Origin: Escherichia coli
Lineage (GTDB): Bacteria > Pseudomonadota > Gammaproteobacteria > Enterobacterales > Enterobacteriaceae
Strand: one strand, 5' to 3'
NCBI RefSeq assembly: GCF_001677475.2
Contig: NZ_CP015229.1
Length of the DNA stretch: 64,000 nucleotides
Of this stretch, positions 51,025 through 51,250 are shown in pieces. The notes beneath the pieces were generated by a model that did not search any database, had not been told where the DNA came from, and saw only the letters and a program-made list of their open reading frames with translations. Position numbers and translations under genes: made by a program. The number at the start of each line of letters is the position of its first letter. Position 1 is the first letter of the stretch.

Positions 51025-51250
51025 GATGAAGCAAGGAGGTGCCCCATGCGTCAGTTTTATCAGCACTATTTTACCGCGACAGCGAAGTTGTGCTGGTTGC
51101 GTTGGTTAAGCGTCCCACAACGATTAACCATGCTTGAAGAGCTGATGCAGTGGGAGGGGAGTCATTCTGACTACTGATTTGCGGACATCATGTGTGACTG
51201 AGTATTGGTGTTAATCGCCACGCCAGCAGTGATTATCTGCTGGCTTTTTT
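51025..51250 (+). ncRNA. sgrS: SgrS small RNA (glucose-phosphate stress)
   Basis: Divergent from sgrR; contains the sgrT ORF, the conserved GUGUGACUGAGUAUUGGUG base-pairing region and a CCAGCAG..CUGCUGG-U-run terminator; ends approximate. Confidence 0.85.
51046..51177 (+). CDS. sgrT: Small protein SgrT encoded within SgrS
   Basis: 43-aa ORF MRQFYQHYFTATAKLCWLRWLSVPQRLTMLEELMQWEGSHSDY inside the sgrS transcript. Confidence 0.85.
   Translation: MRQFYQHYFTATAKLCWLRWLSVPQRLTMLEELMQWEGSHSDY

Follow-up and report, generated by a model that had tools for sequence, protein, structure and literature searches.

Background

The question that this locus raises is what to make of an sgrS gene whose sequence departs from that of Escherichia coli K-12. 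An earlier note on this DNA (a stretch of 64,000 nucleotides, hereafter the window) had proposed that the 3' domain of the encoded small RNA may carry lineage-specific changes, which could affect its binding to Hfq or its range of targets. We consider it very probable that the locus is the canonical sgrS/sgrT gene of the SgrR-controlled glucose-phosphate-stress response in an allele without setA, and that this allele is one side of an old two-haplotype polymorphism of Escherichia. The differences from K-12 would then not be private to the source genome: the window would represent a haplotype from which setA was deleted and which has the sgrS 3' domain general to the genus, and the setA-bearing haplotype of K-12 and its relatives would also move between lineages by recombination. 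The gene and the allele are both already known, and the linkage to setA, the deletion scar, the prevalence of a U6-C tail and the prediction for the target asd are small additions.

Results and Discussion

The locus is sgrS with an embedded sgrT

The Rfam model for SgrS (RF00534) matches positions 51025-51251 of the window on the plus strand with 228.9 bits (gathering score 37, E 2.5e-64), and the match spans model positions 1-232 of 232, which is the full length of the model. We place the sgrS small RNA at 51025..51251 (+), with a 3' end that may lie anywhere in 51250-51256, depending on the termination point; at 227 nt, the window allele is equal in length to that of K-12. The gene for its divergent activator, sgrR, lies at 49299..50954 (-), has the K-12-equivalent ATG at 50954 and encodes a protein of 551 aa with 98.9% amino acid identity to K-12 SgrR by tblastn. 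Over its ~70 nt, the intergenic region between the two genes (50955..51024) departs from K-12 at 2 positions, and immediately 5' of the sgrS +1 position the two sequences are identical. From work on K-12, the sgrS promoter and the SgrR-binding sequences are located between sgrR and sgrS (PMC2760817), and by analogy the corresponding region of the window, 50955..51024, probably holds both. The divergent arrangement of sgrR and sgrS, with a conserved promoter region, is a mark of membership in SgrS. The genomic position beside sgrR, the promoter region, the length of 227 nt and a 3' module predicted to have two hairpins are all shared with K-12 SgrS.

The earlier note had read from the DNA an intact sgrT frame, an intact ptsG-pairing seed and a canonical terminator, and all three are borne out. 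The sgrT coding sequence (51046..51177, +) runs from an ATG at 51046 to a TGA at 51175-51177 and encodes 43 aa; its product, MRQFYQHYFTATAKLCWLRWLSVPQRLTMLEELMQWEGSHSDY, matches the Pfam SgrT family PF15894 over residues 3-37 with 50 bits against a cut-off of 27. RefSeq labels an identical gene 'glucose uptake inhibitor SgrT', and a scan of both SgrT alleles against NCBIfam matched no family model with either. The seed GTGTGACTGAGTATTGGTG is unique in the window, with a single exact match at 51192-51210 where 0 chance matches are expected. The pairing core CUGAGUAuUGGUG within it, which is given as the consensus of the SgrS pairing core in PMC2760817, is unpaired in both the MFE and the centroid structures predicted for the full-length RNA. 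The terminator consists of an 8-bp stem at 51222-51244, followed by the T-rich TTTTTTCTTT.

The locus is the sugar-stress small RNA gene sgrS with embedded sgrT, in an allele without setA. If it works as it does in K-12, SgrR would switch on sgrS from the intergenic region that the two genes share, SgrT, an inhibitor of the PtsG transporter, would be translated from the 227-nt RNA, and the single-stranded nt 168-187 of this RNA would pair with ptsG, manX, yigL and other mRNAs, helped by Hfq on the 3' module.

Comparison with K-12

Aligned with sgrS of K-12 MG1655 (b4577), the window allele has ~28 differing columns, nearly all of which fall in nt 116-161 and nt 188-227. Over nt 1-115 there is a single mismatch, A13 for G13. 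The first divergent block (nt 116-161; 51140..51185, +) comprises the C-terminal codons of sgrT and the linker, and differs at 16 of its 46 positions, among them linker nt 159-161, which read GGA in the window and CUG in K-12. The pairing block that follows (nt 162-187; 51186..51211, +) contains the seed at 51192-51210 and is the only part of the 3' half of sgrS that is identical to K-12; in nt 188-227, 11 alignment columns differ, indels included. Identity across the whole sRNA, which had been named beforehand as the outcome that would speak against a divergent allele, was not found. Where the divergence had been suspected, from the sgrT stop to the seed (51178-51191, TTTGCGGACATCAT), the window does differ from MG1655 (CTTGCCTGCATCAT), at 4 of 14 positions, but the extent of the divergence had been understated, since sgrT codons and the part after the seed differ too.

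Two alleles that track the presence of setA

We surveyed the sgrS alleles of 5426 complete E. coli genomes, in 5399 of which the gene is found. The window-type allele, defined by at least 95% identity, is present in 2157 of the 5426 genomes, or about 40% (1719 at 99% identity or more to the window allele, and 438 more at 95-99%), and 3242 genomes have an allele with 80-90% identity to that of the window, which is the K-12 type. Between the window allele and K-12-type alleles the identity is 88.6-89.5%, and the sgrS of the type strain ATCC 11775 matches the window allele at 227 of 227 nt (100%). It has been reported that K-12 SgrS is 88% identical to the homologues of CFT073 and O157:H7, and that those are 99% identical to each other (Horler & Vanderpool 2009, PMC2760817); these percentages agree with our figures for the window against K-12 and with the class at 99% or more, and sgrT likewise has 43 aa. 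The sgrT ATG is kept in the window, unlike in O157:H7, where it is lost (PMC2760817). The percentages, together with the complete match to ATCC 11775, suggest that the window allele is the CFT073/O157 form.

A few genomes depart from both arrangements in detail. The sgrS locus is partly deleted or rearranged in some (NZ_CP086336.1, H30/H54; NZ_CP116409.1, H78/H132): the sgrS of EBJ001 is just 84% identical and ~16 nt shorter (211 nt of the record against 226 of the query), and in HH97 a K-12-type 3' domain is adjoined by merely a 79-nt fragment of setA.

In K-12, setA (1179 bp) lies between sgrS and leuD, and read-through from sgrS into setA is documented (PMC4509938). The window is without setA downstream of sgrS, hence without an sgrS-setA read-through operon. 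A tblastn search for SetA within the window gave no match, and what is found directly 3' of the sgrS terminator, where the operon would have setA, is a spacer of 33 nt (51252..51284), which occupies the site of setA in K-12 and in other genera and ends at the stop of leuD (51285..51890, -), a gene convergent with sgrS. The same arrangement exists in ATCC 11775, with the leuD stop 33 nt past the sgrS terminator and no SetA-coding sequence. By extension from K-12, strains of the window type would be expected to show no SgrR-driven read-through into setA.

The two sgrS alleles track the presence and absence of setA almost perfectly. Among the 5426 genomes, 3241 have setA; a contiguous stretch of K-12-type 3' domain and setA is found in 3239, against 3242 K-12-type alleles, and the window-type junction between sgrS and leuD is contiguous in 2143 genomes, against 2157 window-type alleles, the linkage being taken from these matching counts and from junction-spanning queries rather than from a per-genome table. 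The setA-bearing strains of the K-12 type are those that we take to be phylogroups A and B1, and the window-type strains those that we take to be B2, D, E and F.

The comparison of K-12 with ATCC 11775 reveals how far the difference extends. Identity is 97-100% in the greater part of sgrR and in the 5' half of sgrS, drops from 98-99% to 84% and then to 73% in the 3' half of sgrS, is 84-93% in the ~250 nt of leuD nearest the junction, and returns to 97-100% further into that gene. This profile indicates a divergent haplotype block that is centred on the site where setA is present or absent and has the sgrS 3' domain as its left edge. The block would begin at sgrS nt 116, run through this site and end ~250 nt into leuD, whose 3' end it would include. 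The 3' end of sgrR (L001, K-12, 1745-1945) shows a second divergent patch against ATCC 11775, with 83-91% identity, which may be another recombination tract.

Between the window and ATCC 11775, identity across sgrR-leuB is 96.7%, with 161 mismatches in 4947 nt. Given this flank divergence of 3.3%, ~7 differences would be expected in sgrS and 0 are observed; within the setA-less haplotype, therefore, the whole sgrS RNA is, judged by this comparison, under stronger conservation than the neighbouring genes. The leuDCB genes of the window have at most 97.8% identity to any complete E. coli genome, and because this identity is low to all of them, the source seems to be an under-sampled Escherichia lineage close to E. 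coli. To representatives of the cryptic clades, the leuDCB region (51252-54400) is ~92% identical. Despite this divergent leuDCB, the sgrS of the window is still identical to that of the B2 type strain.

Ancestry of the two haplotypes

To place the two forms, we rely on 42 loci from species-representative genomes that were collected in one scan with a degenerate seed pattern, a set from which E. fergusonii, E. marmotae and S. enterica subsp. enterica are absent. In this set, setA directly follows sgrS in all Citrobacter, Salmonella, Enterobacter, Pluralibacter and Superficieibacter loci and in every Klebsiella/Raoultella locus with enough downstream sequence, and leuD comes next after setA wherever an outgroup locus extends that far. 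Like the window, E. albertii, E. whittamii, Escherichia sp. E1V33, E. coli SCPM-O-B-8794 and ATCC 11775 are without setA, and in the first four of these the 3' domain is nearly base for base that of the window. The linker of the window, TTGCGGACATCAT (UUGCGGACAUCAU in the RNA), is the majority state TTGC(A/G)GACATCAT of Citrobacter, Salmonella and Klebsiella, and the K-12 linker, UUGCCUGCAUCAU, occurs among the sampled loci only in K-12 and Escherichia sp. MOD1-EC7003. The window-type 3' domain is the widespread Escherichia form and in our view probably ancestral to the genus, and the K-12 3' domain is atypical. The suspicion of a lineage-specific 3' domain had thus caught a real difference in sequence and assigned it in the wrong direction, as the outlier is the K-12 form.

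The likeness to other genera goes further in some respects than in others. Citrobacter and Salmonella SgrS share with the window the seed and the linker, which in the RNA reads UUGC(A/G)GACAUCAU, and Citrobacter SgrS also shares the post-seed UAAUCGCC hairpin and the GGC-U6-C tail. Unlike the window, both genera keep setA downstream of sgrS; their SgrT has 40 aa (PMC2760817) against 43 in the window, and the 5' halves of their sgrS genes have ~71-76% identity to K-12, itself at a distance of 1 in 115 nt from the window. One could imagine from the post-seed sequence TAATCGCC.CGCCAGCAG...CTGCTGGCTTTTTTC, which resembles those of the Citrobacter freundii group, that the window-type 3' domain came in recently from outside, either from Citrobacter or from some other genus. 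We regard such an import as extremely improbable, given that this 3' part is 81-87% identical to Citrobacter as against 94-96% to E. albertii, E. whittamii and the cryptic clades and 100% to ATCC 11775, that the allele is spread over more than two thousand E. coli genomes (2157), and that the 3' end of leuD in the window is Escherichia-like, with 89-94% identity compared with 78-83% to Citrobacter. More generally, identities of 72-87% between the window-type 3' part and Citrobacter or Salmonella, and of 77-80% between K-12 setA and the sampled outgroups, do not support an origin of either allele in these two genera.

Returning to an old polymorphism within Escherichia, the spacer GATTGAGTGCCGGACGG resembles what Citrobacter has at the end of its setA, the stop region with the first arm of a downstream hairpin, and this sequence at 51252..51284 is likely the scar of a setA deletion. 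We infer that Escherichia started from an arrangement like that of Citrobacter and lost setA by deletion at an early stage, and that the old haplotype left by this deletion is the one in the window. A deep lineage, at the level of Escherichia, that never lost the gene would be the source of the setA-bearing haplotype of K-12. K-12 setA has 77-80% nucleotide identity to each of the outgroups sampled, a level close to that of sgrR, and the 3' end of K-12 leuD has ~89-91% identity to other Escherichia and ~74-83% to other genera; among the sampled outgroups, no donor of the K-12 haplotype was identified. MOD1-EC7003 (L039, 11369-13692) combines an sgrR that is ~92% identical to K-12 with an sgrS 3' half and setA that are 98-100% identical, over a locus that reaches only 360 nt into setA. 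This mosaic indicates that the setA cassette moves between lineages, namely the cryptic clade and E. coli, through homologous recombination. Introgression and a long-kept polymorphism would fit the data for the K-12 haplotype alike.

The sgrT reading frame and the 5' region

The SgrT proteins of the window and of K-12 are identical at 36 of 43 residues, and all 7 differences fall in residues 32-43, where 12 substitutions in the last 12 codons change 7 residues. Near the 5' end, the A at sgrS nt 13 (51037; G in K-12) is part of the sgrT Shine-Dalgarno sequence AGGAGG (51034..51039, +), and the predicted energy of the 5' hairpin is -6.7 kcal/mol in the window against -12.4 in K-12. The K-12 GGGGGTGCCCC hairpin inhibits sgrT translation (PMC2760806), and the GC-rich hairpin over the sgrT ribosome-binding site was reported for just 3 of 15 E. 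coli strains (PMC2760817). In our survey, the exact first 60 nt of K-12 sgrS are present in 1417 genomes, and 3822 genomes differ from them by at least one base. With its AGGAGG and its weaker 5' hairpin, the window allele would allow better translation of sgrT.

The Hfq-binding module and the U tail

In K-12, the module that binds Hfq consists of a U-rich stretch, a small stem-loop (nt 183-196), the terminator stem-loop (nt 199-219) and a poly-U tail (nt 220-227), and the compensatory pair G184A-C195U restores function, so that structure matters and not sequence (PMC7870926). The 3' module of the window is predicted to fold in the same order: a U-rich UAUU, a small hairpin, a terminator hairpin and a U tail. 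The small stem-loop, UGGUG-UUAAU-CGCCA (51206..51220, +), is predicted in both the MFE and the centroid structures, and consists of 5 bp, one of them U-G, with a loop of 5 nt, unlike that of K-12, with its 4 bp GGUG/CACC. The terminator hairpin, GCCAGCAG-UGAUUAU-CUGCUGGC (51222..51244, +), has 8 pairs, 6 of them G-C, closes with G-C where K-12 has G-U, and is trailed by TTTTTTCTTTTT. The U tract (51245..51256, +) is composed of T6, a C at 51251 and then T5, where K-12 has T8, so the RNA ends in U6-C compared with U8. For the 60-nt 3' module as a whole, the predicted energy is -20.9 kcal/mol in the window against -17.8 in K-12. Structure prediction of the 3' domain, one of the two checks that had been suggested for this locus, hence yields the same module architecture as in K-12, and on these models the Hfq-binding architecture appears to be preserved in the window allele.

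The tail is the feature that invites doubt. Work of the Aiba laboratory on K-12 sRNAs concluded that Hfq binding needs a tail of at least 7 U residues plus a moderate hairpin (PMC5558911), and the uninterrupted U run of the window is 6, against this K-12-derived threshold of 7. It could be argued from this that the window allele is a weakened riboregulator which binds Hfq poorly, in a locus shifted toward control through SgrT: extension of the K-12 stem shortens the tail and abolishes Hfq binding, in line with the requirement for at least 7 U (PMC5558911), the substitutions U224A and U224G impair regulation (PMC7870926), the window combines a T6-C-T5 tail with an 8-bp stem closed by G-C, and it has the better sgrT Shine-Dalgarno sequence and the weaker occluding hairpin. 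We nevertheless find this reading improbable. Among the 32 homologues with a proximal terminator, the GGC-T6-C form is found in 25, from Citrobacter, Enterobacter, Superficieibacter, Yokenella and Escherichia, and is the family norm; 5 others have T7, and a T8 tail is found only in K-12 and MOD1-EC7003. Diverged Escherichia show perfect conservation of the seed and the module, which would not be expected of a decaying regulator, and the window stem is longer by one closing pair, whereas the published constructs are extended GC-rich inverted repeats. Because GGC-T6-C is the majority design among homologues, we consider impaired Hfq binding by the window allele unlikely. The U6-C tail of most SgrS homologues (L003-L044) fits awkwardly with the published requirement for '7 or more U'. 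A literature search for Hfq binding by the window-type allele in pathogenic E. coli returned no direct evidence; a RIL-seq paper on EPEC mentions SgrS in passing.

The seed and its targets

The pairing block, with the seed in it, is invariant. The 25 nt of the retrieval pattern, its four free positions included, are identical in 42 of 42 retrieved homologues, and the duplex of the seed with ptsG has -27.1 kcal/mol for both alleles. The ptsG leader is itself at least 99% identical in 5379 of 5424 genomes, and being nearly invariant it shows no co-variation with the sgrS allele. For the other targets, the target regions of K-12 were scanned in 34-nt sliding windows against nt 154-187 of the sRNA, with duplex energies that take no account of the accessibility of target or sRNA or of Hfq. 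RNAduplex runs of a 51-nt sRNA piece against targets of 140-290 nt gave long-range structures with huge loops, which we judged unrealistic, and the 34-nt windows were used instead; the sites that these returned for manY and folE are not the verified ones and were excluded from interpretation.

For the K-12 and window alleles, respectively, the predicted duplex energies (in kcal/mol) are -26.1 and -24.4 with manX, -24.9 and -25.7 with yigL, -27.9 and -29.1 with purR, -22.8 and -22.8 with adiY, and -28.6 and -22.9 with asd. The partner of asd site I is K-12 SgrS +158 to +176 (bioRxiv 10.1101/221978). Here, K-12 forms a 6-bp helix between its CCUGCA (nt 158-163) and the UGCAGG over the asd Shine-Dalgarno sequence, and the window has CGGACA at this place; the pairing is predicted to be weaker in the window because this helix is lost. 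With sgrS nt 158-178, asd site I yields -23.0 kcal/mol for K-12 and -12.7 for the window, and with nt 155-187 it yields -23.2 and -17.0, the latter in a shifted and wobble-rich helix. The asd site is the same as in K-12 in both of the two divergent E. coli leaders that were aligned. Hence, asd site I is the only target for which these models predict clearly weaker pairing, by about 6-10 kcal/mol, or, put conversely, stronger asd pairing may be a gain specific to the K-12 haplotype. The suggested effect on the target range narrows accordingly to this one site, with ptsG, yigL, purR and adiY predicted to be unchanged. In strains of the window type, one would expect the same regulation of ptsG and a weaker pairing with asd site I.

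Do these differences matter at all? The 3' differences could be neutral drift in unconstrained positions of linker and loops, which would leave the two alleles functionally interchangeable, and we give this possibility considerable weight, though somewhat less than even. Both alleles have the same pairing block at nt 162-187 and keep the small hairpin and the terminator hairpin, and the duplexes with ptsG, yigL, purR and adiY differ by about 1 kcal/mol at most and that with manX by less than 2. Moreover, the SgrS orthologues of Salmonella and Klebsiella repress E. coli manX (PMC3089445), and the sampled species of these genera have a linker of the same type as the window. Three points argue against pure drift: nt 159-160 of K-12 are implicated in manX regulation (PMC3089445), the published pairing with asd site I uses nt 158-176, in which the window has lost the CCUGCA/UGCAGG helix, and the absence of differences over the 227 nt within the setA-less haplotype, where about 7 were expected, points to constraint.

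If the differences do matter, some of what textbooks describe as the SgrS regulon would belong to a single introgressed haplotype and not to the species, and natural alleles would differ in their hierarchy of targets, a reading that we put forward tentatively and consider doubtful. In that case, the K-12-type 3' domain with setA, present in ~60% of E. coli and in one cryptic-clade genome, would have created the extended asd pairing and would couple SgrR to setA, and the window type would be without both features and have a better translated SgrT. Conclusions from K-12 SgrS may not transfer to strains of B2, D, E and F or to other Escherichia species, as regards asd as a target, co-expression of setA, poor translation of SgrT and the rule of an 8-U tail.

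Other features of the window

An insertion of ~1 kb (48295-49304) lies between the TPP riboswitch of thiB and the end of sgrR, and is absent from K-12 and ATCC 11775. Its open reading frame (48500-49069, +; 189 aa) is labelled in RefSeq as the T3SS effector EspY2, a Pfam scan of the 189-aa product gave no match, and an EspY2 insertion is found at the same site in 1046 of the 5426 E. coli genomes. The TPP riboswitch itself, upstream of thiB at 48160-48259 (-), matches Rfam RF00059 with 66.1 bits and corresponds to the sroA region of the K-12 annotation. The leucine operon leader is located at 56010-56159 (-; RF00512, 145.8 bits), and a full-length match to the sRNA ES003 at 1820-1872 (+; RF02750, 83.4 bits).
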